From Escherichia coli (lineage in GTDB: Bacteria; Pseudomonadota; Gammaproteobacteria; Enterobacterales; Enterobacteriaceae), in NCBI RefSeq assembly GCF_003334765.1, contig NZ_QOWT01000001.1: a stretch of DNA of 64,000 bases. One strand, given 5' to 3'. Position 1 is the stretch's first letter, and every line of letters starts with the position of its first letter. Below, in pieces: positions 1-37,955 of this stretch. Below the pieces are notes generated by a model. The model had not been told where the DNA came from. It was given only the letters and a program-made list of their open reading frames with translations, and made no database searches. Both the position numbers and the translations under genes were made by a program.

Positions 1-602
1 TCATGGTGCAACTGCTTCAAATTAAAACTCTGGTCTGACTTCAAATAATTATCATATTATTTATTTGCGTAACGGGATATCAGAAAAAGATATTTACCCC
101 ATTAATTTATTAGGATGTTTACATCGGATTTGTGATTAAGCGTGGTATTATTTATTAGCGAAACGTTTCTCTCTTGATTTTTTTGCTCATTCATCAATTT
201 TTCTTATTTTAAATTTACAATCCCTTTGGGGATTGACTTCTCTTTAGGGTAATTAATAGCCGTTAACTGACTGTTTTATGAGAAAAAGTGATATAACTTT
301 TTATTCATTGCATAGCAAAAAATGTGATATTGCACGCACTATGTAATAACTTCTCCCACTGGCCTGGAACAACTGAACTTATTGAACTATGTTAGAAAAT
401 ACGCCAGTTTAAGTATCTGCCTGAACTGGCAAGGTTAAGCACAATGATATATCGGCGCGTATTCCGTTGCATAAGTGTGCAAAAAAAGTGGAAGACGTAT
501 CGAGATTTGTGCGTCTGATCGAGACATGTTTAAAAATGGCTTGCCATAATTAACGTTGTATGTGATAACAGATTTCGGGTTAAACGAGGTACAGTTCTGT
601 TT

Positions 603-746
603 ATGTGTGGCATTTTCAGTAAAGAAGTCCTGAGTAAACACGTTGACGTTGAATACCGCTTCTCTGCCGAGCCTTATATTGGTGCCTCATGCAGTAATGT
701 GTCAGTTTTATCTATGTTATGCCTGCGGGCGAAGAAAACAATCTAA
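603..746 (+). CDS. yobF: Small protein YobF (47 aa), co-transcribed with cspC
   Basis: ATG 603 to TAA 744-746 translates to [47 protein letters not shown]; lies 12 bp upstream of cspC; not in ORF track (below length cutoff); recognised as K-12 YobF. Confidence 0.8.
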
Positions 747-758
747 GGAATTTTTCAA

Positions 759-968
759 ATGGCAAAGATTAAAGGTCAGGTTAAGTGGTTCAACGAGTCT
801 AAAGGTTTTGGCTTCATTACTCCGGCTGATGGCAGCAAAGATGTGTTCGTACACTTCTCCGCTATCCAGGGTAATGGCTTCAAAACTCTGGCTGAAGGTC
901 AGAACGTTGAGTTCGAAATTCAGGACGGCCAGAAAGGTCCGGCAGCTGTTAACGTAACAGCTATCTGA
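759..968 (+). CDS. cspC: Cold-shock-domain protein CspC
   Basis: 69-aa ORF with RNP1/RNP2 motifs KGFGFI and VFVHF; full-length match to remembered CspC. Confidence 0.95.
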
Positions 969-1013
969 TCGAATCCACTGATCTGAAGTGTGAATACGCT
1001 TCAATCTCGCTAT

Positions 1014-1041
1014 AAAGCCTCGTCGAATGCGAGGCTTTTTA
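1014..1041 (+). terminator. Rho-independent terminator downstream of cspC
   Basis: GC stem agcctcg / cgaggct around loop tcgaatg, followed by TTTTT (1036-1040). Confidence 0.7.
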
Positions 1042-1133
1042 CTATGCTTTATCTTCGCTCCTGGCGTTCGGATATTTGCCCGCCGCGTGATTCGCGTTAC
1101 ACTTGCGGCCTTTAGTATCCTGCCGGAGTTGTC

Positions 1134-6146: not shown

Positions 6147-6608
6147 TTGCTACCTCCTTTATTATCGTTAACACCTCAACGTGCCAGATGTATTTTTGAA
6201 TCGTCGTCCACAATCGAATCGATTCAGATAAGGGCTACAACCAAAAACCCCTGCGTTTCGCGATTTATTTTAGATATCGAAAAAATTATTTTATGTGATG
6301 AAGATCCGTAATTTAACTTTCGATTAGCAGAAATTTCGAAAGGTAAAATATCCTTGTTACATTCGTTTGCAAAGGAAGGTAAATCTTTGCCAAATCAGAG
6401 GCGTCTCTGATATGTTTAACTCCCGTTTAACAACCATGGAGTATAGGGCAGTAGCCCGCAGTATGGATCGTCACCGACGTCATTTCAGCATCAGGCCTTT
6501 TAACGCCCGCCTTTCTGGCACTCTATGCCGCACCTTTCGTTTGCATTTTGTCGTTACGCCTGCATTATTTCTGGCGTCGAATAGCTATTCCTTAAGCAGG
6601 AGCTTGTC

Positions 6609-8165
6609 ATGGAATTCTTAATGGACCCCTCAATTTGGGCGGGGCTACTCACGCTTGTTGTTCTCGAAATTGTGCTGGGTATCGATAACCTGGTCTTCAT
6701 CGCCATTCTTGCTGACAAACTGCCGCCAAAACAACGCGATAAAGCGCGTTTGCTGGGGTTATCACTGGCGCTGATTATGCGTCTGGGGCTGCTGTCGCTG
6801 ATTTCATGGATGGTCACGCTGACCAAACCGCTATTTACCGTCATGGATTTCTCCTTCTCCGGACGCGACCTGATTATGTTGTTCGGGGGGATATTCTTGC
6901 TGTTCAAAGCAACAACCGAACTGCATGAACGGCTGGAAAACCGCGATCATGATTCCGGCCACGGTAAAGGCTACGCCAGTTTCTGGGTGGTCGTCACACA
7001 GATTGTCATCCTTGACGCCGTCTTCTCGTTGGATGCGGTAATTACTGCAGTAGGGATGGTTAACCATCTGCCGGTGATGATGGCGGCGGTAGTGATTGCG
7101 ATGGCGGTTATGTTGCTGGCATCCAAACCGCTGACGCGATTCGTTAACCAGCACCCCACGGTGGTGGTGCTCTGTCTGAGCTTCCTGTTAATGATTGGTC
7201 TGAGTCTGGTGGCAGAAGGTTTCGGTTTCCACATTCCGAAAGGTTACCTGTATGCCGCGATTGGCTTCTCGATCATCATCGAAGTGTTTAACCAGATTGC
7301 GCGTCGCAACTTTATTCGCCACCAGTCGACTTTGCCGCTGCGAGCGCGTACTGCCGATGCCATCCTGCGTTTGATGGGCGGGAAACGTCAGGCCAATGTT
7401 CAGCACGATGCCGATAACCCGATGCCGATGCCGATCCCGGAAGGTGCATTTGCCGAAGAAGAACGTTACATGATTAACGGCGTACTGACGCTGGCGTCGC
7501 GTTCTCTGCGCGGGATCATGACGCCGCGCGGTGAAATAAGCTGGGTTGACGCTAATCTCGGGGTCGATGAAATCCGCGAGCAACTGCTCTCTTCACCGCA
7601 CAGTCTGTTCCCGGTATGTCGCGGTGAACTGGATGAAATCATCGGTATTGTACGTGCTAAAGAACTGCTGGTGGCGCTGGAAGAGGGCGTTGATGTGGCG
7701 GCGATTGCTTCGGCGTCTCCGGCGATTATCGTCCCGGAAACCCTCGATCCGATCAACCTGTTGGGCGTGCTGCGTCGTGCTCGCGGGAGCTTTGTTATCG
7801 TGACCAACGAGTTTGGTGTGGTACAAGGTCTGGTCACGCCGCTGGATGTGCTGGAAGCCATTGCGGGTGAATTCCCGGACGCTGACGAAACGCCGGAAAT
7901 CATTACTGATGGTGACGGCTGGCTGGTAAAAGGCGGTACAGATTTGCATGCCTTGCAGCAGGCGCTTGATGTTGAGCACCTTGCCGATGACGATGATATC
8001 GCGACGGTCGCGGGCCTCGTGATCTCGGCAAATGGTCACATTCCCCGTGTGGGCGATGTGATTGATGTAGGGCCACTGCATATCACCATCATTGAAGCCA
8101 ATGATTATCGTGTTGATCTGGTTCGCATTGTTAAAGAGCAACCGGCGCACGATGAAGATGAGTAA
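6609..8165 (+). CDS. yoaE: TerC-family membrane protein with C-terminal CBS/CorC domains, YoaE
   Basis: 518-aa ORF: N-terminal multi-TM region then soluble C-terminal domain; recognised as K-12 YoaE. Confidence 0.88.
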
Positions 8166-8168
8166 GCG

Positions 8169-9767
8169 TTAACGTAACGGCATAATGGGCGTGATATGTC
8201 CATTATGCCGGGCGGGCGGCGGTTGGCTGCCCGCCAGCCATTTGGGAAAATCACGTAGCGGCATCGGCTGTGCGTACAAATACCCTTGCAAAATATGCAC
8301 GCCATGACGGCGCAAATACTTCGCCTGTTCTTGCGTTTCCACGCCCTCCGCCACCAGTTCAATATTCAGTCTTTGCCCCAGCGCGATGATGATATCGGTC
8401 ACCGTCGAGTTAACCGCGTCAGAACCTATAGCTGCGGTAAATGACTTATCAATTTTCAGCACGTCAGGACGTAATGTTTCAAGCCAGGAAAACGAGCTGT
8501 TGCCGGTGCCGAAGTCATCAATCGCCAGTTTGACGTTTTTACGATGCAGCTCGCGGGCAATCCGATAATCAACATCCAGTAAGGCATCGCGTTCGGTGAT
8601 TTCGAGGATCAGTTGCTGAATCGGGTGAGCGCTAAACCAGTACTGATTGAGATCTTTTATCAGCACACCACGGCGAAAATGGCTGGGTGCGACGTTAATG
8701 CCAACATGAAACTGACTACTCATCGGGAAAACATGGCGCTGACGAATGGTTTCTGCCATCACATAGCGGGTCAGTGGCACAATTAAATGATGTTCTTCCG
8801 CGATAGGAATAAACACATCCGGTGAAATCCAGCCCTGACGCGGATTGTTCCAGCGCAGCAAAATCTCTACACCAATACATTGCTGGCTGCGCGCATTAAG
8901 CAAAGGCTGACAGAACAATTCGAACTCATGTTGCGCCAGGCCCAGATTGATTTCGCGGGAAAAGCTCATTCGGTAAGCGGTCGCCAGCCAGGCGATGTAG
9001 CCCACCAGTAAACTTAGCAGCACCGCCAGCGGTAATTGTGTTGGAAGATAGTGCCATGCCAGCGCCGTAGCCCCCGGACCATTAACGTTAATGGTAAAAG
9101 GAAAGCGTTGCGAAGAAACCTGATAGTTTTCATTGTCTTCAGGTTGCGGAAGGGAATCTACCAGCCCATTACCATAGAGCAAATGCCGTTTGTCCACCGT
9201 CAGGCTGGCGCTACTGATTTGCGGCAGTTGTGGCTCAAGCAGCATTGCCGTCAGTAAGTCGATGTTAATCATCTCCATGACCCCAGCATTGCTACTGCCC
9301 GCTGCAGGCGTCCATTGAATCAAAACCGGACTGCCTTTAATCAGGGCACGGTCGATCGTCAGGCGTAAAAGTGGTTGCGGTGCAGGAAGTTCAGCCAGAA
9401 TGTCCACGACGGGCACATTGCGATAACCAAAAATGCTGGAGCAATAAAGTGTGCCGTCTTGCACCAGGCCAATGGATCGCACAGTTTGGAGTTTTGCCGC
9501 CTGTTTACGTAATGGCAAATGGGCGACAGAGCAGGGCAGACCAATCAGCGGAAGCAAGACTTCGCTACCTGCCTGTAGGGGAAGCAGTACTTTATCTAAT
9601 TCCTCTACAGCGTGATTGGCGAATTGTACTACCCGTTGTTGATTTAAGTTACGCTGTGAAATAAATCGCACGCTCAGGGTCGAAGCGAGCGTAACGAGTG
9701 CGCAAATCGTACAAACAATCATTCGATTACGACGATAGGTTTTAATGATCCGTTGTGCTTTTTGCAT
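8169..9767 (-). CDS. pdeD: c-di-GMP phosphodiesterase PdeD (YoaD), membrane-anchored EAL protein
   Basis: Track ORF 8169-9797 (542 aa); start set at the internal Met (MQKAQRIIKTYRR, 532 aa) per remembered K-12 length; C-terminal EAL-type domain. Confidence 0.8.
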   Translation of the reverse strand: MQKAQRIIKTYRRNRMIVCTICALVTLASTLSVRFISQRNLNQQRVVQFANHAVEELDKVLLPLQAGSEVLLPLIGLPCSVAHLPLRKQAAKLQTVRSIGLVQDGTLYCSSIFGYRNVPVVDILAELPAPQPLLRLTIDRALIKGSPVLIQWTPAAGSSNAGVMEMINIDLLTAMLLEPQLPQISSASLTVDKRHLLYGNGLVDSLPQPEDNENYQVSSQRFPFTINVNGPGATALAWHYLPTQLPLAVLLSLLVGYIAWLATAYRMSFSREINLGLAQHEFELFCQPLLNARSQQCIGVEILLRWNNPRQGWISPDVFIPIAEEHHLIVPLTRYVMAETIRQRHVFPMSSQFHVGINVAPSHFRRGVLIKDLNQYWFSAHPIQQLILEITERDALLDVDYRIARELHRKNVKLAIDDFGTGNSSFSWLETLRPDVLKIDKSFTAAIGSDAVNSTVTDIIIALGQRLNIELVAEGVETQEQAKYLRRHGVHILQGYLYAQPMPLRDFPKWLAGSQPPPARHNGHITPIMPLR

Positions 9768-18447: not shown

Positions 18448-20133
18448 TTGAAGAAGGTTTGGCTTAACCGTTATCCCGCGGACGTTCCGACGGAGATCAA
18501 CCCTGACCGTTATCAATCTCTGGTAGATATGTTTGAGCAGTCGGTCGCGCGCTACGCCGATCAACCTGCGTTTGTGAATATGGGGGAGGTAATGACCTTC
18601 CGCAAGCTGGAAGAACGCAGTCGCGCGTTTGCCGCTTATTTGCAACAAGGGTTGGGGCTGAAGAAAGGCGATCGCGTTGCGTTGATGATGCCTAATTTAT
18701 TGCAATATCCGGTGGCGCTGTTTGGCATTTTGCGTGCCGGGATGATCGTCGTAAACGTTAACCCGTTGTATACCCCGCGTGAGCTTGAGCATCAGCTTAA
18801 CGATAGCGGCGCATCGGCGATTGTTATCGTGTCTAACTTTGCTCACACACTGGAAAAAGTGGTTGATAAAACCGCCGTTCAGCACGTAATTCTGACCCGT
18901 ATGGGCGATCAGCTATCTACGGCAAAAGGCACGGTAGTCAATTTCGTTGTTAAATACATCAAGCGTTTGGTGCCGAAATACCATCTGCCAGATGCCATTT
19001 CATTTCGTAGCGCACTGCATAACGGCTACCGGATGCAGTACGTCAAACCCGAACTGGTGCCGGAAGATTTAGCTTTTCTGCAATACACCGGCGGCACCAC
19101 TGGTGTGGCGAAAGGCGCGATGCTGACTCACCGCAATATGCTGGCGAACCTGGAACAGGTTAACGCGACCTATGGTCCGCTGTTGCATCCGGGCAAAGAG
19201 CTGGTGGTGACGGCGCTGCCGCTGTATCACATTTTTGCCCTGACCATTAACTGCCTGCTGTTTATCGAACTGGGTGGGCAGAACCTGCTTATCACTAACC
19301 CGCGCGATATTCCAGGGTTGGTAAAAGAGTTAGCGAAATATCCGTTTACCGCTATCACGGGCGTTAACACCTTGTTCAATGCGTTGCTGAACAATAAAGA
19401 GTTCCAGCAGCTGGATTTCTCCAGTCTGCATCTTTCCGCAGGCGGTGGGATGCCAGTGCAGCAAGTGGTGGCAGAGCGTTGGGTGAAACTGACCGGACAG
19501 TATCTGCTGGAAGGCTATGGCCTTACCGAGTGTGCGCCGCTGGTCAGCGTTAACCCATATGATATTGATTATCATAGTGGTAGCATCGGTTTGCCGGTGC
19601 CGTCGACGGAAGCCAAACTGGTGGATGATGATGATAATGAAGTACCACCAGGTCAACCGGGTGAGCTTTGTGTCAAAGGACCGCAGGTGATGCTGGGTTA
19701 CTGGCAGCGTCCCGATGCTACCGATGAAATCATCAAAAATGGCTGGTTACACACCGGCGACATCGCGGTAATGGATGAAGAAGGATTCCTGCGCATTGTC
19801 GATCGTAAAAAAGACATGATTCTGGTTTCCGGTTTTAACGTCTATCCCAACGAGATTGAAGATGTCGTCATGCAGCATCCTGGCGTACAGGAAGTCGCGG
19901 CTGTTGGCGTACCTTCCGGCTCCAGTGGTGAAGCGGTGAAAATCTTCGTAGTGAAAAAAGATCCATCGCTTACCGAAGAGTCACTGGTGACTTTTTGCCG
20001 CCGTCAGCTCACGGGATACAAAGTACCGAAGCTGGTGGAGTTTCGTGATGAGTTACCGAAATCTAACGTCGGAAAAATTTTGCGACGAGAATTACGTGAC
20101 GAAGCGCGCGGCAAAGTGGACAATAAAGCCTGA
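18448..20133 (+). CDS. fadD: Long-chain fatty acid-CoA ligase FadD
   Basis: Track ORF 18382-20133; start set at TTG 18448 (..KKVWLNRYP.., 561 aa) per remembered K-12 annotation; AMP-binding motif [12 protein letters not shown]. Confidence 0.9.
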
Positions 20134-20149
20134 GCGTTAAGTCAGTCGT

Positions 20150-20178
20150 CAGACGCCGGTTAATCCGGCGTTTTTTTT
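20150..20178 (+). terminator. Rho-independent terminator of fadD
   Basis: Stem cgccgg / ccggcg with loop ttaa, followed by an 8-T run. Confidence 0.75.
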
Positions 20179-29453: not shown

Positions 29454-30481
29454 TCAGGAATGTAGCGCTGGATGCGCGACAAAAGGTGTTTTCTGTTTGT
29501 GTTTTTTCTCCTGATACATCGCAATATCGGCAGCATGCAGGGCACTGTCTGCATCGGTTGTTTCAGGATCGACTTCTACTATGCCAAGACTGGCACCGGG
29601 ATAATACAAATCAACATCACCTAAGTGATATTCTCCACGTATTTGCTGCTGAATGCGTTCTCGCAGCGACGAAATATCCGCATTCTCGTTGTTTAGTGAA
29701 ACAACTAAAAACTCATCACCGCCGAGACGACCAATAACTTCGCCATTTTGCTGGAGCGTATTAAGGCGCTCGCCAACCTGAATGAGAAACAGATCGCCAC
29801 TATTATGACCAAAACGATCATTGATTAATTTGAAGTTATCCAGATCGATAAACGCGATCATTATCTTATGGTTAAGATGCCGGGCGAGGGAAAACAGTGT
29901 CGTCAGATTTTCAAAAATCGCCCGCCGATTCGGTAGCCCGGTTAACGAGTCGGTATACGATTGCGCAATCAGCGCAGCATTGGCTTCGCGCAGCTGTTCA
30001 ACCAGTGCCTCTTTTTGAATATATTGTGCAATCAGTCCGGCGAATAACTGTAAAACCTGTTCCGCGCGTTCACTCCACTGGCGCTTCTCACTGCTGGCGG
30101 CGCAAAGCGTGCCATAGAATGATCCATCCGGTAAGTGAATTGGCGTGCTCAGAAATGTGGTGATGCCAAGATTGCGTGCCGCAATACAGTCACCCCAACG
30201 GTCGGGGACTTCATCGCTGAAAAAGCAGTTTTCATCAATGGCGCGTTTGCATAACGAGTAATCCCACGAGACGGTAAAATTCTCCGGGATGTACATTTTC
30301 TGGCTGTTACGGGCAAACATAATATGCTGCAGGCGCGCTTCGACATCCACTTTGGTCAGGTAGGTTGATTCCATATCAGTGACCATTTCCAGCATCTCCA
30401 GAAGCTGTCGGACCAGACTTTCCAGTGACTGTTCTTTGGCAAGGGATTGCGAGACGCGGGCGATAATCTGATCTGACACGG
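29454..30481 (-). CDS. dgcP: Diguanylate cyclase DgcP (YeaP), GAF-GGDEF
   Basis: Track ORF 29454-30608; start set at the GTG encoding VSDQIIARVSQ (341 aa) per remembered K-12 length; intact GGDEF motif RLGGDEFLV. Confidence 0.82.
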
Positions 30482-30661
30482 AACAACTCCAGGATACGGC
30501 GGGTAAATGCTGATTATTTAATCTTTGCAGGCATGATAAAACATCATCAACAAAGATGAAACAAGACGTAATATGTTTTGAGTGAATGTAATAAAAATAG
30601 TGCTGCAAAACAAAACGATACCGCGATACTCTAATCTTGGATAAATATGTGAGATCAATAA

Positions 30662-30916
30662 ATGAAAATTATCAGTTTTGTTCTGCCTTGCTTGCTGGTC
30701 CTGGCTGGTTGTTCAACCCCTTCTCAGCCAGAAGCACCTAAACCGCCGCAGATTGGTATGGCAAATCCGGCGTCGGTCTATTGCCAGCAGAAGGGCGGGA
30801 CGCTCATTCCAGTGCAGACAGCGCAAGGGGTCAGCAACAATTGCAAATTACCGGGCGGTGAAACGATTGATGAATGGGCATTGTGGCGGCGTGACCATCC
30901 GGCTGGTGAAAAATAA
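30662..30916 (+). CDS. yoaF: DUF333 lipoprotein YoaF
   Basis: 84-aa ORF with signal peptide and lipobox LAGC. Confidence 0.85.
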   Translation: MKIISFVLPCLLVLAGCSTPSQPEAPKPPQIGMANPASVYCQQKGGTLIPVQTAQGVSNNCKLPGGETIDEWALWRRDHPAGEK

Positions 30917-30937
30917 CCGCCGGATGCTGTACTAAAA

Positions 30938-31285
30938 TCACAAGCTACGTAGCCAGTCGGCCAGCACCAGCGCATGGTTCTGCGTGGTGTTTTTTGCTGA
31001 GTAGAGCAGGGTCAGCGGCTGTTTTTTGGCGATGTCCGCCAGCCGCTTTCCTTCTTGCTCGTGTTGCGCCAGTTCTGCAAGATATTGCTCGCGAAAGGTT
31101 GCATAATCGACGACTTCGCCGTGAAAGGCTTTGCGCAGTTCCGTTGACGGCGTGATTTCTTTATCCCACTCATCAAGGGCTAAATCGGTTTTTTTGATAC
31201 CGCGCGGCCAGAGGCGGTCGACCAGTATGCGATAACCATCGCTCTGTTCAGCCGGATCATAAACGCGTTTGCACTGAATATTCAT
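30938..31285 (-). CDS. yeaO: DUF488 protein YeaO
   Basis: Track ORF 30938-31306; start set at MNIQCKRVYD (115 aa). Confidence 0.82.
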   Translation of the reverse strand: MNIQCKRVYDPAEQSDGYRILVDRLWPRGIKKTDLALDEWDKEITPSTELRKAFHGEVVDYATFREQYLAELAQHEQEGKRLADIAKKQPLTLLYSAKNTTQNHALVLADWLRSL

Positions 31286-31339
31286 CGTGTTTGTTCTCCC
31301 TTTCACGCATGATTTGTTACGTCACTATAGCACCGGATA

Positions 31340-32521
31340 TTAGCGAATTTCTTTGTCTCTCCCGGCGCAAAGTCCGAAAATCGCCATCAGTAGTGAAAGT
31401 ATGGCAACACCCATAAGTGGTACAGACCAGTTACCGTTAGCATCGTGTATTTTACCCATCAGCGGCGGCCCACAGGCTGCCAACAAATACCCGACGGATT
31501 GTGCCATCCCCGAGAGTGCCGCCGCCTGATGCGCAGAACTAGCCCGCAGACCAATGAACGTCAACCCCAGTATCATTGTTGCGCCGGAACCAAAACCGAA
31601 AAGCAGAGTCCAGGTGATCGCGTGCGCTGGCATAAAGCAGAGCCCAACCGCGCCCACTGCGCACATCAAGGCAACGAACGCTGCAATACCACGCTGATCT
31701 TTCACATGATGTAAGAAAAGTGGGATCAGCAAACCGGGTGCTGCTGTGGCTAGTTGCAGCAAACCATGCAGTGAACCCGCCTGTGCTTCGCTATAGCCGT
31801 GACTGATGAGGATCGCCGGAAGCCAGCCAATAATCACGTAATAGACCAGTGAGTTGATCCCAAGAAACAATGTGACCTGCCAGGCAAGCGGCGAACGCCA
31901 GATACCCCGAGTATGTAAGGCGCGCGAGGTACTCAAATTTGCATGTTGTTGACTTCGCCACTGTGGCAGCCATAAAAAAAGAGCCAGCAGAGGAAAACAC
32001 ATCAGCATGAGCAACGCGCCTTGCCAGCCAAAACCGTTCAAAGCCAGCGGCACGACCATAGCCGATCCCAGTGCCGCTGCAGCTCCCATTGTCAGGGAAT
32101 ATGCGCCGGTAAGTCTGGCGACGGAATGAGGGAAATCGCGTTTAATTAATCCTGGCAGTAAGACATTGCCTAATGCAATCCCACCGCCAATGACCGCTGT
32201 ACCGCCAAATAATAAGTAAGGCGAAGGGAGAGAGCGAATTGCGATACCAGCACAGATCAAAAGTAACGCGGCAAACAGGCTACGTTCCATACCAAAACGT
32301 CGCGCTACCGGGGCAGCCAAAGGTGAGATTAGCGCAAAGGCCAATAATGGCAGGGTGGTCAATAAGCCGGTTTGCGCTGTCGTCAGCGAGTAAGCGGAAC
32401 GAATCGTATCCAGTAACGGTGCTGCGCCGGTAAAGGTGACGCGTAATGTTGTGGCAATCATCAGAATGCCAGCGATAAGGACAATCCTGTTTTTGCCGCT
32501 TAATGAAGTTGAACAGGTCAT
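31340..32521 (-). CDS. yeaN: MFS transporter YeaN
   Basis: 393-aa 12-TM-type ORF; recognised as YeaN. Confidence 0.88.
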   Translation of the reverse strand: MTCSTSLSGKNRIVLIAGILMIATTLRVTFTGAAPLLDTIRSAYSLTTAQTGLLTTLPLLAFALISPLAAPVARRFGMERSLFAALLLICAGIAIRSLPSPYLLFGGTAVIGGGIALGNVLLPGLIKRDFPHSVARLTGAYSLTMGAAAALGSAMVVPLALNGFGWQGALLMLMCFPLLALFLWLPQWRSQQHANLSTSRALHTRGIWRSPLAWQVTLFLGINSLVYYVIIGWLPAILISHGYSEAQAGSLHGLLQLATAAPGLLIPLFLHHVKDQRGIAAFVALMCAVGAVGLCFMPAHAITWTLLFGFGSGATMILGLTFIGLRASSAHQAAALSGMAQSVGYLLAACGPPLMGKIHDANGNWSVPLMGVAILSLLMAIFGLCAGRDKEIR

Positions 32522-32617
32522 ATGCTTCTCATTGTTACAAACGAGGCTGTACCTTACCGTTTTTATTGTTATGTTGAATCAAGCTAAAATGACAAATTAT
32601 CGCTAAGTTCGGACAAA

Positions 32618-33439
32618 ATGATGCACAGGTTGAATCTCAATGGCTATGAACCCGACCGACACCATGAAGCCGCGGTCGCATTTTGTATTCACGCCGGAAC
32701 GGATGAGTTAACCAGTCCTGTACATCAGCACCGCAAAGGACAGCTGATACTGGCGCTACATGGTGCAATTACCTGTACGGTGGAAAATGCTTTGTGGATG
32801 GTGCCGCCACAATATGCGGTTTGGATACCGGGCGGGGTGGAACATAGCAATCAAGTAACAGCTAATGCTGAACTCTGTTTTCTGTTTATCGAACCCAGCG
32901 CAGTGACAATGCCGACAACATGTTGCACATTGAAAATATCGCCCTTATGCCGGGAATTAATTTTAACCCTGGCAAACAGGACGACGACTCAGCGTGCTGA
33001 GCCAATGACCCGCAGATTAATTCAGGTCCTGTTTGATGAACTCCCTCAGCAGCCACAACAACAGCTGCACCTGCCCGTTTCTTCTCATCCTAAAATCCGC
33101 ACGATGGTGGAGATGATGGCGAAAGGGCCTGTCGAGTGGGGGGCATTGGGGCAATGGGCTGGCTTTTTTGCGATGAGTGAACGCAATCTTGCCCGACTGA
33201 TAGTAAAAGAGACGGGGTTGAGTTTTCGCCAGTGGCGTCAGCAGTTACAGCTGATTATGGCGCTTCAGGGATTAGTGAAAGGCGATACTGTACAGAAAGT
33301 TGCTCATACGCTGGGGTATGATTCAACAACGGCCTTTATTACTATGTTTAAGAAAGGCCTGGGGCAAACGCCAGGCCGATATATTGCGAGATTAACTACT
33401 GTTTCCCCACAATCAGCGAAACCAGACCCGCGGCAATAA
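32618..33439 (+). CDS. yeaM: AraC-family transcriptional regulator YeaM
   Basis: 273-aa ORF with cupin-like N-terminus and C-terminal AraC HTH; divergent from yeaN. Confidence 0.88.
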
Positions 33440-33842
33440 GCGGCCCAACCGGTACGCCGCGAAACAGCGCTACGCCTAAAACAGTGCCTACCAGCAGCCC
33501 GGCGACCAGTTGCGGCTGGCTGCCCATTAACGTCACGCCGCGCCCACCCAGCCAGGAGACAATCACGCCTACTGCAATCGCCACCAGTGATTTCCAGTTC
33601 AGAAACGAGTGAATCAAGGTTGAGGGCGGTAGCGTCCCGCTGGCGATGGGGGCCATAACGCCAATCGTCAGAATGATTATCCCGATACTTAGCCCCTGTT
33701 TTTCAATCCACGGAAAAAAGGTGCTTAACGGTGTGACGCGGACAATGATTAACACCAGAATTGAAACGGCGACAGTGGTGTTATGACTGATAAAGCCCAG
33801 CGCAGCTAACCCGAGCAGGATCAGCAAAGTGACATCAAACAT
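33396..33842 (-). CDS. yeaL: DUF441 inner membrane protein YeaL
   Basis: 148-aa hydrophobic ORF; its 3' end overlaps the yeaM 3' end by 44 bp. Confidence 0.85.
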
Positions 33843-34011
33843 CGTGGTTTCCTTGCCAAAAAATAATAAGCCTGCTTACTTTACGCTTGCTGCAGGAAGG
33901 AAGTAGAAAATCTTTACGTTTTTTGCATAAAAAATCAGGCGAACTGTCATCAAACTGCCATTTGTGCACGCTAACAATAACGTGAAAACAGCTATCTCCC
34001 GGGGGCATGCT

Positions 34012-34116
34012 ATGAACGATCAAATGTTTGTCGAGACACTGATTATCACGTCATCGTTTTTTGCCATTGCTGTTGTACTGGTTTTGTCCGTTCTTCTTAT
34101 CGAACGGACCGGCTAG
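34012..34116 (+). CDS. yoaI: Small membrane protein YoaI (34 aa)
   Basis: ATG 34012 to TAG 34114-34116 translates to [34 protein letters not shown]; not in track. Confidence 0.75.
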
Positions 34117-34620
34117 TTACGCAGTGCGGCGGAAATTGACCAGTTCTGGTTGCGCAATGCGCAAATAATCCGCGGTTTTCAAAATAACGGATTTATCCAG
34201 CATGCCTGCATTGAAGGCGATTTCATCAAATCGTTCGAAGAGTAGAGGGTCGGCAACCAGTTTGAGTTTTGGATGGAAGCTGAAAGGGGGGATCGCGCCG
34301 AAGACACAGCCTGTGAGTTCATCGACTTCCGCCGGGCTGGCCAACGAAGCGCGTAATCCGCCTATATGGCTGGCGAGTTGGCTCAGATCGGCCTGTTGAT
34401 CGGCTGCGAGGATCGCCAGAACATGTTGATTTACGCCATTGCCTTTGACTTTACATACCAGTGCCTTAGCACCCTGGCCTAGAGCGGTGCCACGAATTTC
34501 TGACACCGCTTCACATTTACCTACCGCTTCATGGGTAACGACGCGGAAGTCAGCACCTTCTTGTGATAATAAAGCGATTAACCGCTGATGCGTCACGCTT
34601 CCTTTAGCCATTTCAGTCAT
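34117..34620 (-). CDS. yeaK: YbaK/ProX-type aminoacyl-tRNA deacylase domain protein YeaK
   Basis: 167-aa ORF recognised as YeaK; stop codon directly abuts the yoaI stop. Confidence 0.88.
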   Translation of the reverse strand: MTEMAKGSVTHQRLIALLSQEGADFRVVTHEAVGKCEAVSEIRGTALGQGAKALVCKVKGNGVNQHVLAILAADQQADLSQLASHIGGLRASLASPAEVDELTGCVFGAIPPFSFHPKLKLVADPLLFERFDEIAFNAGMLDKSVILKTADYLRIAQPELVNFRRTA

Positions 34621-34662
34621 TTCACGCTCCTGAGATTACAAGCAAACAACCACAGAAGGTTA

Positions 34663-36153
34663 TCATGAACGGCTGTTTTTGTTCTGCTTATTGACATATA
34701 AACGCTCATCGGAAGCTTTATACGCATCATGTAACGTATCGTTTTCTTTCATCGCGTAAATACCGGAAGAGAAGCCGATCTCTTTCTGCGGCGCGATATG
34801 TTGCAGACGTTTTTCGATACGTTCAGGCAGTTGTGCTGCAATTTGCGGCGTCGAATCGACAAGAATGATGCAGAATTCATCGCCACCGAGTCGGATGGCA
34901 TAATCACTTTTACGAATCGACTGTTTAATCGCCTGAGCTAATAACGTAATCGCTAAATCCCCCTCCTGATGACCGAGGGTGTCATTTATTTGCTTTAACT
35001 TGTCCATGTCAATAGCAATAAACATCACCGAAGAACCGGATTGCACCAGTTTCTGCAACCGCTGCTCCAGTTCAGGGGTTAAAATTTTGCGATTATACAG
35101 TCCAGTCATCGCATCACTAATATTTTCTCGCGACACATTTTGGTATAAACGGAAGTGCATCCGCACCATATTCAGCAAAATTAACGCCGTCAAAATCCAG
35201 AACAGAACGCTTTTCCACGAAGACGTGATAAAGTAAAGAATATCAATGGATAACGAGACACGAATGCCGCCCGGTAAGTCATGGACGTAACTGACATACT
35301 GGAACAGATTATCTTCGCTCTGGTTGATGATAATGTCGCGCCCCGAATCGGTATCGGTTAGCGTGACATTGAGAAAACGCCAGAGGAGAGGGCGGTCATG
35401 AGTATAAAAGATATTCCGCAGATTGTTTTTGTTAATATCCAGCAGCACAATCCCTTTTAGCTGCCCTGCGACATATACCGGCGTCAGCAAACTCATCACG
35501 TTCTGTTTAGTACGCTGATCCTGGTAAATGCTCGACAATACGGTACGCCCGGTAAATACCTTTTCAATATCTTTGCGATCGATGCCAATACTTCCTGACT
35601 GCAGGAAGGACCAGTTATTCATCGCAAAGTATTCAACATTAACCGGCTCATAAAAATAGACATAGCGGTCATTGAGATCGAGATAATAGTGAAATTTCTC
35701 TTCGGCCATCCCAAGACCTGAACCGTAATCATCCTGGTGGCGGTTGCCTTCCACTGCCTGATCAAAAGCGGGTAATAGTGCTGCAGCTTCCACAATTGTG
35801 TCGCAGTCAGTGGATGCGGTTTGTAGTGTGCCGCGTAAGCCCGGGTATTTATGGGCAGTCAGGTTTAAGCCATGGGTGTTATTGGCAGACTCAAAAGCCT
35901 CGCAGATGGCGCGCCGCTGTTCTGGCGACACTTCCGACTGCTCAGCAGCGAGAGCGCGCATCACATGCGCGGCAATACTCTGATTCTGATACTTATCATA
36001 AAGAAAGGAGGAGTCTGCTTTCTGCACGATATAGCGCAGATAGGCACTCATTGCTCTGTCGCTGGCGACAAGTTCAAAAATAAGGAAGGAAGATGTCAGC
36101 ACAATGACACTTGCGGCGATAAAATGCCGGAGCATTCTATGGTGCAATTTCAT
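34663..36153 (-). CDS. dgcJ: Diguanylate cyclase DgcJ (YeaJ), membrane sensor with GGDEF domain
   Basis: Track ORF 34663-36333 (556 aa); start set at MKLHHRMLRHF (496 aa) per remembered K-12 length; intact GGDEF motif RLGGDEFCI. Confidence 0.82.
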   Translation of the reverse strand: MKLHHRMLRHFIAASVIVLTSSFLIFELVASDRAMSAYLRYIVQKADSSFLYDKYQNQSIAAHVMRALAAEQSEVSPEQRRAICEAFESANNTHGLNLTAHKYPGLRGTLQTASTDCDTIVEAAALLPAFDQAVEGNRHQDDYGSGLGMAEEKFHYYLDLNDRYVYFYEPVNVEYFAMNNWSFLQSGSIGIDRKDIEKVFTGRTVLSSIYQDQRTKQNVMSLLTPVYVAGQLKGIVLLDINKNNLRNIFYTHDRPLLWRFLNVTLTDTDSGRDIIINQSEDNLFQYVSYVHDLPGGIRVSLSIDILYFITSSWKSVLFWILTALILLNMVRMHFRLYQNVSRENISDAMTGLYNRKILTPELEQRLQKLVQSGSSVMFIAIDMDKLKQINDTLGHQEGDLAITLLAQAIKQSIRKSDYAIRLGGDEFCIILVDSTPQIAAQLPERIEKRLQHIAPQKEIGFSSGIYAMKENDTLHDAYKASDERLYVNKQNKNSRS

Positions 36154-36333
36154 GATAAATGGCACTCCTTCGGTTAGTGAAACGAGAAAACCAGATAAAG
36201 TTCGATTGCGGCCTGGCACAGGGGCGCTAATTATACTCATCTCTGCGCCGCTGGGGAGGGGAAATTTAGGGGTAATAGTAATAAATTGTATGCAAAAGCC
36301 ACGCAAAAAGCATGGCTCTGAATATTTTTGCAC

Positions 36334-37809
36334 TTAAATATGATGAATAATCACTTTGTTGCCCCCCTCGCTTTTCGCTTCGCGTAAGGCTTTATCTGCT
36401 TCCGTCATGACAAGCGAGATATTACGCGTGTCACCCGTTGAAAAAACCGTGCCAATACTGATGGTCATTTGTTCAGGAACATCATATCTGTTACTAAAGC
36501 CGGTCAGGAGTTCGACATTTTTACGCATACGTTCCGCAATGATTTTTGCCTGGGCACTATTGAGTTCGGTAAATAGCAAGCCAAACACCTCACCCTCCAG
36601 TCGCGCTAAAATATCATCGGGGCGGATGCTTTGCTGGATAATATCGACAATTGAAACCAGCACTTTATCACCCACACGATGTCCCCATTGGGCATTGATG
36701 CGTTTGAACTGATTAATATCAACCAGCATGACACAGAAGTCCTTAACAACAGGTCGCGACAATAATGACTCTACGCTGTTGAAAAAGTAGCGCCGATTAT
36801 AAATATTGGTCAGCACATCATGAACTGCCAGTTTGCTGGAGAGTTGCAGCTCCTGAAAAATGTTATAAATCAGAAAAGACACAACAAACAGTTTACTGGA
36901 AACTTCAATCCCGCGACTGATATACCAGATAGTATAATTATACTCATCCAGAGTCAGTAGAAGTAAGTTGCAGCATAGCGATGCCAGACATAATAATGCT
37001 ATTAACGGCCATAGTTCGCTGGCTAATCGTGTGCGCATGATAATAAAGAACAGTAAAAATGCCCACAGACAAACCAATATTTTTGTATAGTTGATTCCCC
37101 AGGTCGCAGTATGGTTGTCCGGACAGTAATCGACGACATACAAAGAATAGTCAGCGTTATAACTGCTCAGATTGTGTGCCAGAAGGGGAAAAACTAAAAA
37201 AGGGATCAGCGCCAGCAACAGGATTCCCGTTTTTTTCTTATTGTTGTCAAGGATGTTGTCTTTTCCATAACAAAAGAGCGCCAGCGAGGTTAAACAAATA
37301 AAACTGAGTTGGCGGAAAATATAGAAAATAGAAACATCATTCGACTTTGTCTGGATCAGTGTACTGCCGTTAATTGGTTTATGGATAATTACAATGGTTT
37401 CAACTAAATAGATAAGGCCACTTAAAAATGCAAGGCTTAAAATGAGTGTTGGTAAAATTTGTTTGTTAGTGAAATATTTCATTAACATGAAAAGAAAAAT
37501 GACGGCGTTAAGGAAAAACAAAGCCACAACAACCATCAGGTAATTCATCTGTGGGATGAGTTTTACATTTGTGTTTTCGTTATATAAGGTAGTAATGCAA
37601 AATAAAATTAACGTCAGCAATAAACTGAAAATAAAAAAGCTTTGAGCTTTTAATTTTTGTGTACCCATAGAAACCATAAAAAGGAGAGCAATGTGAGTGC
37701 TGGATTTTATTGATGGCAGAGATATATAGTTTTGACCAGGATCAATTTTCGTTAACGATAAAAAATATTTAAAGAATAACCCCATGGAAATACGTGTTGA
37801 CTGAATCAT
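36334..37809 (-). CDS. cdgI: Membrane GGDEF-like protein YeaI (CdgI) with degenerate active-site motif
   Basis: 491-aa ORF with multi-TM N-terminus and C-terminal GGDEF-fold domain in which the signature reads EGEVF instead of GG(D/E)EF. Confidence 0.85.
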   Translation of the reverse strand: MIQSTRISMGLFFKYFLSLTKIDPGQNYISLPSIKSSTHIALLFMVSMGTQKLKAQSFFIFSLLLTLILFCITTLYNENTNVKLIPQMNYLMVVVALFFLNAVIFLFMLMKYFTNKQILPTLILSLAFLSGLIYLVETIVIIHKPINGSTLIQTKSNDVSIFYIFRQLSFICLTSLALFCYGKDNILDNNKKKTGILLLALIPFLVFPLLAHNLSSYNADYSLYVVDYCPDNHTATWGINYTKILVCLWAFLLFFIIMRTRLASELWPLIALLCLASLCCNLLLLTLDEYNYTIWYISRGIEVSSKLFVVSFLIYNIFQELQLSSKLAVHDVLTNIYNRRYFFNSVESLLSRPVVKDFCVMLVDINQFKRINAQWGHRVGDKVLVSIVDIIQQSIRPDDILARLEGEVFGLLFTELNSAQAKIIAERMRKNVELLTGFSNRYDVPEQMTISIGTVFSTGDTRNISLVMTEADKALREAKSEGGNKVIIHHI

Positions 37810-37955
37810 TTTTCCGAATGATTGTTTTCTGGAACTAAATTATGTAAAGGTTATGCTGTCATATTTAAAGCGATTGTAAGCTAATGTATGTAATAAATGA
37901 GATAATTTACAGTAAGCTAAAAATCAGCCAGGCGATAATGACCTGGCTGATAGTT

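Follow-up and report, generated by a model that had tools for sequence, protein, structure and literature searches.

Background

Caulobacter PopA and Pseudomonas PelD are degenerate-GGDEF receptors of c-di-GMP, which bind the nucleotide at an RxxD site and act as non-catalytic effectors. In E. coli, DgcT (YcdT) and DgcX are active cyclases in which a MASE4 domain is combined with a GGDEF domain, and CdgI (YeaI), DgcT and DgcX have been published as one family (PMC5635695; PMC10459773). Sarenko et al. 2017 (PMC5635695) described the A-site of CdgI as degenerate and its I-site as intact. The purified protein binds c-di-GMP (Fig. S4 of that study), and specific interactions link its GGDEF domain to several others. 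The neighbouring gene product DgcJ (YeaJ) has a studied orthologue in Salmonella Typhimurium, YeaJ (STM1283), whose GAPES1 domain binds AI-2 with a Kd of 0.15 uM and whose cyclase is stimulated by AI-2. YeaJ is reported to be an active cyclase and AI-2-sensing homologues exist in E. coli (PMC9637222). DgcJ is also reported to be coupled to the NfrB glycosyltransferase as a local supply of c-di-GMP, with NfrB encoded at another locus.

The yeaI–yeaJ–yeaP region of E. coli K-12 is well studied, and both the motif finding and its interpretation have already been published. Here we show which genes and domains are present, the state of their motifs, their synteny, the selection acting on them and the lineage-specific decay; c-di-GMP binding, expression, AI-2 sensing and NfrB coupling are taken from published papers.

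The c-di-GMP genes of the window

The window is the whole stretch of 64,000 nucleotides that was analysed. Its collinear counterpart is MG1655 1,844,194–1,908,193 (reverse complement), without indels and with 16 SNPs (99.97% identity), none of which lies inside dgcP, dgcJ, cdgI or pdeD (b1794, b1786, b1785 and b1815 in the MG1655 annotation). The window comes from a close K-12 relative, and CdgI, DgcJ, DgcP and PdeD do not differ from those of E. coli K-12 in protein sequence, gene order or annotation. The genes and the motifs of PdeD, DgcP and DgcJ are as follows.

8169..9767, minus strand: pdeD (yoaD), 532 aa, CSS-motif periplasmic domain and EAL domain (Pfam)
8859-8867, minus strand: EAL motif of PdeD, reading EIL, residue 301 (translation)
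29454..30479, minus strand: dgcP (yeaP), 341 aa, GTG start, GAF and GGDEF domains (Pfam)
29709..29723, minus strand: A-site GGDEF of DgcP, aa 253-257 (translation)
34663..36153, minus strand: dgcJ (yeaJ), 496 aa, periplasmic sensor domain GAPES1 at aa 31-304, canonical GGDEF at aa 346-494 (Pfam)
34873..34887, minus strand: A-site GGDEF of DgcJ, aa 423-427 (translation)
34903-34914, minus strand: I-site RKSD of DgcJ (translation)
36334..37809, minus strand: cdgI (yeaI), 491 aa as annotated, MASE4 aa 88-319, degenerate GGDEF aa 328-485 (Pfam)

The three open reading frames and motifs named in the first-pass annotation are all there, with VIGRLGGDEFLVV in DgcP, AIRLGGDEFCIIL in DgcJ and LARLEGEVFGLLF in YeaI (CdgI), and translation confirms the codons of each motif. 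DgcJ and DgcP both carry an intact GG[D/E]EF A-site in a well-matched GGDEF domain (PF00990; E = 6.1e-40 and 7.5e-41, respectively). Their designation as active cyclases is backed by published reports, YeaP being listed as a verified cyclase by Spurbeck et al. 2012 and YeaJ being covered in PMC9637222. DgcP has no RxxD at the I-site position, where the local sequence is LQQNGEVIGRL. A TTG at 30608, upstream of the dgcP GTG start, merely lengthens the open reading frame.

DgcJ has the same GAPES1 (E = 7.8e-151) and GGDEF domains as Salmonella YeaJ, and the protein of the window carries both AI-2-binding residues defined in PMC9637222, Y210 and D239. It is a candidate AI-2 sensor of the YeaJ type. 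The EAL protein placed at 8169-9767 was also borne out. PdeD combines a CSS-motif domain (E = 1.8e-42), with CSS at residue 109, and an EAL domain (E = 3.9e-58), the arrangement of a CSS-EAL phosphodiesterase, and the table of Spurbeck et al. 2012 gives its set of catalytic residues as canonical.

Loss of the catalytic site in CdgI

CdgI belongs to the MASE4-GGDEF family by its N-terminal MASE4 domain (E = 1.4e-48), its GGDEF domain (PF00990, E = 1.3e-44) and its full-length homology to DgcT. Among the matches of the GGDEF domain are cyclases of known structure such as PleD, WspR and DosC. Identity to DgcT is 37% over 449 aa spanning both domains (E = 2e-100), which points to DgcT, encoded at another locus, as the true paralogue of CdgI; dgcT adjoins pgaABCD and dgcX is prophage-associated, unlike cdgI. 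The CdgI start is probably M48 (37668), where the alignment with DgcT and the Citrobacter orthologues begins, or M45 (37677), the annotated start in other Escherichia species. None of the candidate start codons has a recognisable Shine-Dalgarno sequence in front of it. Three sites were located in the GGDEF domain.

36583..36597, minus strand: degenerate A-site EGEVF (E405-F409), replacing GG[D/E]EF (translation and alignment)
36613..36624, minus strand: I-site RPDD (RxxD), R396-D399, before the A-site (alignment A1)
36661..36720, minus strand: stretch DINQFKRINAQWGHRVGDKV, with DID/IND in canonical relatives (translation and alignment)

The order RPDD (396-399), ILARL, EGEVF (405-409) places the RxxD exactly 5 residues upstream of the A-site. 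DgcT and DgcX share the MASE4 and GGDEF architecture and the RxxD I-site with CdgI but have canonical GGEEF, DID, IND and GRN, where CdgI has EGEVF, DIN, INA and GGN; in the alignment with canonical relatives, N366 and A373 stand in for two Asp of the nucleotide/metal site. The first-pass annotation had predicted that YeaI is an inactive cyclase that may bind c-di-GMP, and this agrees with the published binding (PMC5635695) as well as with the degenerate A-site and the kept RxxD. The region very probably encodes two functional c-di-GMP synthases together with a relative, CdgI, that is catalytically dead.

Syntenic Citrobacter orthologues of cdgI have DID, IND, RLGGEEF and ALYEAK..GRN, that is, a canonical GGEEF site. 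All Escherichia orthologues examined, together with two closer metagenome relatives, have E or D at the first Gly, with GGN or SGN, and their A-sites read EGEVF, EGEEF, DGEVF, EGDVF, EGNVF or EGKRF. Decay of the A-site is confined to Escherichia and its nearest relatives. R396 and D399 of the RxxD are invariant in alignment A1 (16 family sequences), whereas drift is seen at the A-site and at further catalytic positions. The RxxD is lost in one Escherichia orthologue only, that of Escherichia sp. MOD1-EC7003, which reads IHPDD, with the I-site Arg replaced.

In its RxxD placement and in being under purifying selection (see below), CdgI resembles degenerate-GGDEF I-site receptors. A non-catalytic GGDEF fold and a retained RxxD that binds c-di-GMP are common to PopA, PelD and CdgI. 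CdgI is unlike them in having a MASE4 membrane domain, not receiver or GAF-like domains, and in being a very recent derivative whose sister-genus orthologues are still canonical.

Proposed roles of the three GGDEF proteins

Most probably, the locus is a conserved yeaG-yeaH-cdgI-dgcJ-yeaK...yeaO-yoaF-dgcP region carrying three independently transcribed GGDEF genes with different sensor domains, in which CdgI would be a dead enzyme serving as an I-site receptor. DgcJ would be an active, product-inhibitable cyclase, whose Salmonella orthologue is turned on by AI-2 at the periplasmic GAPES1 domain and which in E. coli may feed c-di-GMP locally to NfrB, as reported. DgcP would be a cytoplasmic, vegetatively expressed active cyclase without an I-site. 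CdgI probably descends from an active MASE4 cyclase, with DgcT and DgcX as its paralogues. On the branch to Escherichia and its nearest relatives, it lost the first Gly of GGDEF and the C-terminal phosphate-binding Arg (GRN to GGN), and further catalytic positions drifted later. It kept the RxxD, where it probably binds c-di-GMP, and has stayed under purifying selection; these three features together suggest that CdgI is a c-di-GMP receptor or adaptor anchored in the membrane, working most plausibly via heteromers with other GGDEF domains. CdgI is normally almost silent, and repression by CsrA is reported. No physiological condition in which CdgI is expressed is known (PMC5635695), which counts against the receptor/adaptor explanation, as do the replaced I-site Arg of one Escherichia genome and the broken and truncated cdgI alleles described below.

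From two-hybrid data only, we infer that the output of CdgI may be inhibition through heteromers. In a bolder version, which we consider unlikely, CdgI would be a dead enzyme of very recent origin: in the lineage of Escherichia and its nearest relatives, an active MASE4 cyclase would have turned into an inhibitor or adaptor that is anchored in the membrane, gated by c-di-GMP and able to titrate other GGDEF proteins (possibly DgcJ) through heterodimers. Restoring a few residues (E405G, V408E, N366D, A373D and G483R) would then undo the change in the laboratory.

Gene arrangement and transcription

The first-pass annotation had also described a local concentration of c-di-GMP genes; the genes are present but their clustering is weak. 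When random gene placement was simulated on a 4.64 Mb circle, P was 0.007 for any 3 of 19 GGDEF-domain genes within 7.1 kb, 0.024 for any 3 of 29 GGDEF/EAL genes within 7.1 kb and 0.017 for any 4 of 29 GGDEF/EAL genes within 28 kb; the windows were picked after seeing the data, so these values indicate an arrangement that is only modestly non-random. Citrobacter sp. Awk 4, sp. NCU1 and sp. R56, as well as metagenome contigs, show the same gene order with MASE4-GGDEF, GAPES1-GGDEF and GAF-GGDEF proteins. The cluster is old, its gene order being common to Escherichia and some Citrobacter species. The GGDEF domains of DgcP, DgcJ and CdgI are just 27-28% identical in pairwise comparisons, which argues against recent (tandem) duplication. 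Two hairpins flank cdgI.

36296..36318, minus strand: hairpin followed by a U-run, directly 3' of the cdgI stop codon (-19.4 kcal/mol, z = -4.46)
37923..37951, minus strand: terminator-like hairpin, 11-bp stem and T-run, just after yeaH (terminator scan)

The first is likely an intrinsic terminator between cdgI and dgcJ. It was not called by a simple terminator scan. The second, after yeaH, means that cdgI needs a promoter of its own. In front of dgcJ there is a TATAAT as well as a strong Shine-Dalgarno sequence, AAGGAG. Given the terminators, these dgcJ signals and the differing detection of the proteins, we are fairly confident that cdgI, dgcJ and dgcP are separate transcription units. We saw no evidence of the genes functioning as a unit.

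The three GGDEF genes and the nearby pdeD might instead form a selected functional c-di-GMP module, for example with CdgI tuning DgcJ. Such a module would fit the low probability of chance placement, the arrangement kept between Escherichia and some Citrobacter, the position of cdgI and dgcJ as neighbours on the same strand, and the interactions of the CdgI GGDEF domain noted above (PMC5635695). However, the P values are post hoc, and the unrelated genes in between (yeaK, yeaL, nimRT, yeaO and yoaF) are also syntenic, so that the GGDEF genes are not singled out by conservation. Their sensor domains bear no relation to one another and their GGDEF domains are divergent, the hairpin separates cdgI from dgcJ, expression patterns differ among the genes (PMC5635695), the known partner of DgcJ is encoded elsewhere, and pdeD is 20 kb off with 21 unrelated genes between. 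We regard a module as unlikely; the clustering is most probably inherited synteny, not a recent duplication or a dedicated operon.

Selection on cdgI

Between E. coli and four other Escherichia species, dN/dS is 0.08-0.10 for cdgI and 0.08-0.11 for its GGDEF part; against a fifth Escherichia species, 98% identical, it is 0.05 for cdgI. The same comparisons gave 0.02-0.04 for dgcJ and 0.01 for yeaH, and the non-synonymous evolution of cdgI is 2.5-4x faster than that of dgcJ. Despite its catalytic loss, cdgI remains under purifying selection. Among the 5426 complete E. coli genomes, 5409 have a match to cdgI that covers at least 80% of the query. In an even sample of 30 E. coli genomes, 28 carry an uninterrupted full-length match annotated as cdgI, and six representatives of Escherichia species have an unbroken reading frame. 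IS1 or IS2 interrupts cdgI in several near-identical strains, and there are common truncated alleles with hundreds of member sequences, so cdgI is dispensable in at least some lineages.

These interruptions and truncations, the faster non-synonymous evolution, the lack of a recognisable Shine-Dalgarno sequence and the failure to detect CdgI under laboratory conditions, with DgcJ and DgcP detected (PMC5635695), are what would be seen if cdgI were a functionless remnant heading to a pseudogene, its I-site retained by inertia. This is quite improbable, as dN/dS is far below 1 in both domains in the four between-species comparisons, the frame is widely intact, loss of yeaI has reported phenotypes in both K-12 and CFT073 (Spurbeck et al. 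2012), and CdgI is toxic on overexpression and specific in its GGDEF-GGDEF interactions (PMC5635695). Purifying selection on a non-catalytic receptor is the reading we prefer.

Is CdgI still a cyclase?

That CdgI (YeaI) is a working, perhaps weak, diguanylate cyclase, giving three active cyclases at the locus, is very improbable. In the 2011 work of Sanchez-Torres, a yeaI mutant reportedly had lower cellular c-di-GMP and E407A is said to be a loss of function. CdgI keeps E407 (third motif residue), the first metal-binding Asp (D364), K369, N372, H377, D381 and R403. Published reports on YeaI cyclase activity conflict: Spurbeck et al. 2012 count YeaI as one of the proteins of 'verified diguanylate cyclase activity', with reference to Sanchez-Torres 2011, whereas later literature treats CdgI as inactive (PMC5635695), or catalytically non-functional in the words of Cimdins-Ahne et al. 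2023 (PMC10459773). The table of Spurbeck et al. 2012 itself gives KNAHDR-EGEVF for YeaI versus KNDHDR-GGDEF in active cyclases, and in the same study the heterologous cyclase WspR rescued the yeaI biofilm defect in no-salt LB but failed to do so in glycerol minimal medium. Of the GG[D/E]EF motif, CdgI has lost the first Gly and the acidic residue in fourth place; DxD lacks its second Asp, IND its Asp and GRN its Arg, and A-site positions 3-4 vary freely among Escherichia lineages (EV, EE, DV, NV, KR), which would not be expected under catalytic selection.

PGAP labels CdgI a 'sensor domain-containing diguanylate cyclase' and the MG1655 label is 'putative c-di-GMP binding protein CdgI'. Because its A-site reads EGEVF and its DID, IND and GRN are replaced, CdgI should, on these residues, not be classed as a cyclase despite the PGAP name.

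The c-di-GMP genes and their motifs

Four genes carry the c-di-GMP domains discussed here. Gene ends are those of the MG1655 annotation, domains are from Pfam, and the codon positions of the motifs were checked by translation.

8169-9767, minus strand: pdeD (b1815), CSS-motif and EAL domains, EAL-domain motif EIL (I-site not applicable)
29454-30479, minus strand: dgcP (b1794), GAF and GGDEF domains
29709-29723, minus strand: DgcP A-site, GGDEF
34663-36153, minus strand: dgcJ (b1786), GAPES1 and GGDEF domains
34873-34887, minus strand: DgcJ A-site, GGDEF
34903-34914, minus strand: DgcJ I-site, RKSD
36334-37809, minus strand: cdgI, formerly yeaI (b1785), MASE4 and GGDEF domains
36583-36597, minus strand: CdgI A-site, EGEVF
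36613-36624, minus strand: CdgI I-site, RPDD

The span 29454-37809 is bounded by the stop codon of dgcP and the start codon of cdgI, in agreement with the annotated gene ends. Translation recovered the peptides on which the first-pass annotation had based its intact GGDEF motifs in DgcP and DgcJ and placed their codons, as it did for the EGEVF that replaces the catalytic signature in CdgI; the EAL protein PdeD has the same coordinates in MG1655. The I-site position of DgcP has no RxxD (local sequence LQQNGEVIGRL). The earlier prediction that CdgI is inactive as a cyclase and possibly a c-di-GMP binder is supported by the degenerate A-site, the RPDD I-site and published binding.

Both the observation and its interpretation are textbook-level knowledge of E. 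coli c-di-GMP signalling. Sarenko et al. 2017 (PMC5635695) described the degenerate A-site and intact I-site of CdgI, and found that the purified protein binds c-di-GMP. They saw strong interactions of the CdgI GGDEF domain with several others, and proposed that CdgI forms heteromers with other GGDEF proteins and so inhibits them, possibly with modulation by c-di-GMP. The protein was not expressed under standard conditions, repression by CsrA was reported and overexpression was toxic. Richter et al. 2014 and Cimdins-Ahne et al. 2023 (PMC10459773) assign YeaI, YcdT and DgcX to a single MASE4-GGDEF family and regard YeaI as a non-functional cyclase. Spurbeck et al. 2012 tabulated the altered residues as KNAHDR-EGEVF and found that WspR, a cyclase, rescued yeaI phenotypes in one medium and not another, but listed YeaI, by citation, among verified cyclases, so that reports on this protein conflict. 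The K-12 reference annotation names it 'putative c-di-GMP binding protein CdgI'. In most RefSeq E. coli genomes the NCBI pipeline name is 'sensor domain-containing diguanylate cyclase', which is misleading because the degenerate active site and the curated K-12 name conflict with it.

DgcJ resembles its Salmonella orthologue YeaJ, whose GAPES1 domain binds AI-2 (Kd 0.15 uM), which raises its activity, with Y210 and D239 as key residues (PMC9637222); both are present in the window's DgcJ. For the E. coli protein, activation of the NfrB glycosyltransferase has been reported.

Degeneration of the CdgI active site

CdgI was aligned with its orthologues and paralogues (16 sequences), and a further comparison took one representative genome for each species. 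The syntenic Citrobacter orthologues have all the canonical cyclase features (DID, IND, RLGGEEF and ALYEAK..GRN), whereas in the Escherichia orthologues and two closer metagenome relatives Glu or Asp replaces the first Gly of the motif, and GGN or SGN replaces GRN. Positions 3 and 4 vary freely among the decayed lineages (E. coli, Escherichia sp. E1V33, E. whittamii, strain E69, E. albertii, SCPM-O-B-8794 and the relatives P0012 and P0018), giving EGEVF, EGEEF, DGEVF, EGDVF, EGNVF and EGKRF. The I-site residues R396 and D399 are invariant in the 16-sequence alignment.

A drifting A-site beside a kept I-site is what a single loss of catalysis with retained c-di-GMP binding would be expected to leave. 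Such a loss would fall on the branch ancestral to Escherichia and its closest relatives, with the I-site still binding c-di-GMP. The contrast between Citrobacter and Escherichia dates the loss of the active site, whose degeneration is recent and still continuing.

The lone I-site exception seen was IHPDD in Escherichia sp. MOD1-EC7003, whose CdgI (locus L009, 4001-5335) is 98% identical to that of the window, has the I-site Arg replaced and also carries INT and ALCEAK. In this protein c-di-GMP binding may also have been lost.

Selection on cdgI and its integrity

In comparisons of E. coli with four further species of the genus, the dN/dS of cdgI was 0.08-0.10 (0.08-0.11 for the GGDEF part alone), compared with 0.02-0.04 for dgcJ and 0.01 for yeaH; a fifth genome, almost the same as E. 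coli here (98% identity at the protein level), gave 0.05 for cdgI. The gene is thus clearly constrained, though 2.5-4 times less than its neighbour dgcJ. At least 80% of the query was covered in 5409 of 5426 complete E. coli genomes, and the gene was uninterrupted in 28 of 30 evenly sampled records. For the most part, then, cdgI is not a decaying gene.

It is nevertheless dispensable in some strains, as seen from IS insertions and common truncated alleles. The clusters headed by CdgI alleles of 345, 295 and 281 residues contain 639, 249 and 934 sequences, respectively. The gene is split by IS2 in SCEC020023 (L020, 8111-10922), by two IS1 copies in p10A (L021, 7335-10364) and by one IS1 in DA33133 (L022, 7335-9587), in regions otherwise ~100% identical to the window. 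SCEC020023 has a further IS1 at the end of yeaK.

The discovery value of these observations is small, since the literature and the reference annotation already cover the genes, the degenerate motif, the intact I-site and the ability of CdgI to bind c-di-GMP. Our additions are the Citrobacter/Escherichia contrast, estimates of selection, evidence that speaks against a recent duplication and against an operon, and some remarks on annotation. The modest gain is evolutionary: canonical Citrobacter orthologues set against Escherichia ones with a drifting A-site, dN/dS ~0.1, and RxxD kept in all but one. Judged from their motifs, these would form a clean natural pair in the same genomic context, an active (canonical-site) and a dead orthologue, usable to study the change from cyclase to c-di-GMP receptor.

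Clustering and origin

The local concentration of c-di-GMP genes noted in the first-pass annotation is real, yet surprising to a modest degree only. With random placement simulated on a 4.64-Mb circle and windows picked post hoc, the probability of any three of the 19 GGDEF-domain genes lying within 7.1 kb was 0.007; for any three of the 29 GGDEF/EAL genes within 7.1 kb it was 0.024, and for any four of the 29 within 28 kb, 0.017.

Gene order is common to the window, Citrobacter sp. Awk 4, sp. NCU1, sp. R56 and two metagenome contigs: yeaG, yeaH, MASE4-GGDEF, GAPES1-GGDEF, yeaK, yeaL, nimR, nimT, yeaO, yoaF, GAF-GGDEF. The cluster therefore already existed when Escherichia and these Citrobacter species diverged. 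Unrelated genes scattered among its members are conserved along with it, which argues for ordinary synteny and not for a selected c-di-GMP module. In the loci of Escherichia sp. E1V33 (L010) and E. whittamii (L011) yeaO directly follows yeaL (~7826-8700), and the pair nimR-nimT, which encodes the regulator and the exporter for 2-nitroimidazole, appears to be missing. The Citrobacter loci and P0020, another compared locus, have an additional GATase-domain gene between nimT and yeaO.

An operon is not supported, given a terminator (11-bp stem) downstream of yeaH, a hairpin and U-run after cdgI, and unrelated genes on both strands between dgcJ and dgcP. The hairpin was not reported by a simple terminator scan:

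36296-36318, minus strand: 9-bp hairpin directly after the cdgI stop, then UUUUGC; -19.4 kcal/mol, z = -4.5

Tandem duplication was rejected as the origin of the cluster. The GGDEF domains of DgcP, DgcJ and CdgI are 27-28% identical pairwise, so the three genes are not recent tandem copies, and the nearest E. coli paralogue of CdgI is DgcT (YcdT; 37% identity over 449 residues covering both MASE4 and GGDEF, E = 2e-100), encoded next to pgaABCD ~780 kb from cdgI. The published tree likewise groups YeaI with YcdT and DgcX (Cimdins-Ahne et al. 2023, PMC10459773).

Start codon and expression signals

The annotated 491-residue CdgI probably begins too far upstream (37668-37809, minus strand). DgcT and the syntenic Citrobacter orthologues align with it only from M48 (37668), the annotated start in other Escherichia species is M45 (37677), and the Pfam MASE4 match starts at residue 88. 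None of the candidate start codons has a recognisable ribosome-binding site or clear Shine-Dalgarno sequence. Upstream of dgcJ lie a perfect TATAAT and, as ribosome-binding site, AAGGAG. These signals fit the published finding that CdgI was undetectable and DgcJ and DgcP were expressed. A simple promoter scan gave five sites against 6.4 ± 2.5 in shuffled sequence, and so provides no positive promoter evidence.

The cdgI stop and dgcJ start share one reading frame, which stays open over the 60 codons that separate them (556-aa ORF; 36153-36336, minus strand). Programmed readthrough was rejected: the frame relation does not hold in two compared loci, L005 and L008, and is thus probably a coincidence. 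Rare natural in-frame deletions join the N-terminal part of CdgI to DgcJ in two proteins, P0026 (532 aa) and P0035 (560 aa).

A hidden regulatory RNA in the GGDEF region was also rejected, as an Rfam scan of the whole window matched only two elements, neither inside 29454-37809:

583-1043, plus strand: cspA-type thermoregulator leader, 135.5 bits, same strand as the cspC gene
20092-20177, plus strand: sRNA sroD, 115.2 bits

Relationship to MG1655

The window is collinear with MG1655 1,844,194-1,908,193 (reverse strand), with no indels and 16 single-base differences, none of them inside dgcP, dgcJ, cdgI or pdeD. These lie at 6358, 6508, 13355, 14582, 16268, 17464, 17936, 18397, 26728, 31892, 46766, 49817, 53214, 55486, 60227 and 61181. 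Five are synonymous, four intergenic and seven non-synonymous (ydjJ P153A, dmlR L115S, yeaY P92L, tsaB V180I, yoaA L437P, pabB L12P and yoaL C16R). Natural isolates match a 24-kb part of the window at ~100%, which points to a close relative of K-12 as its source and not MG1655 itself; K-12-specific alleles may account for some of the differences.
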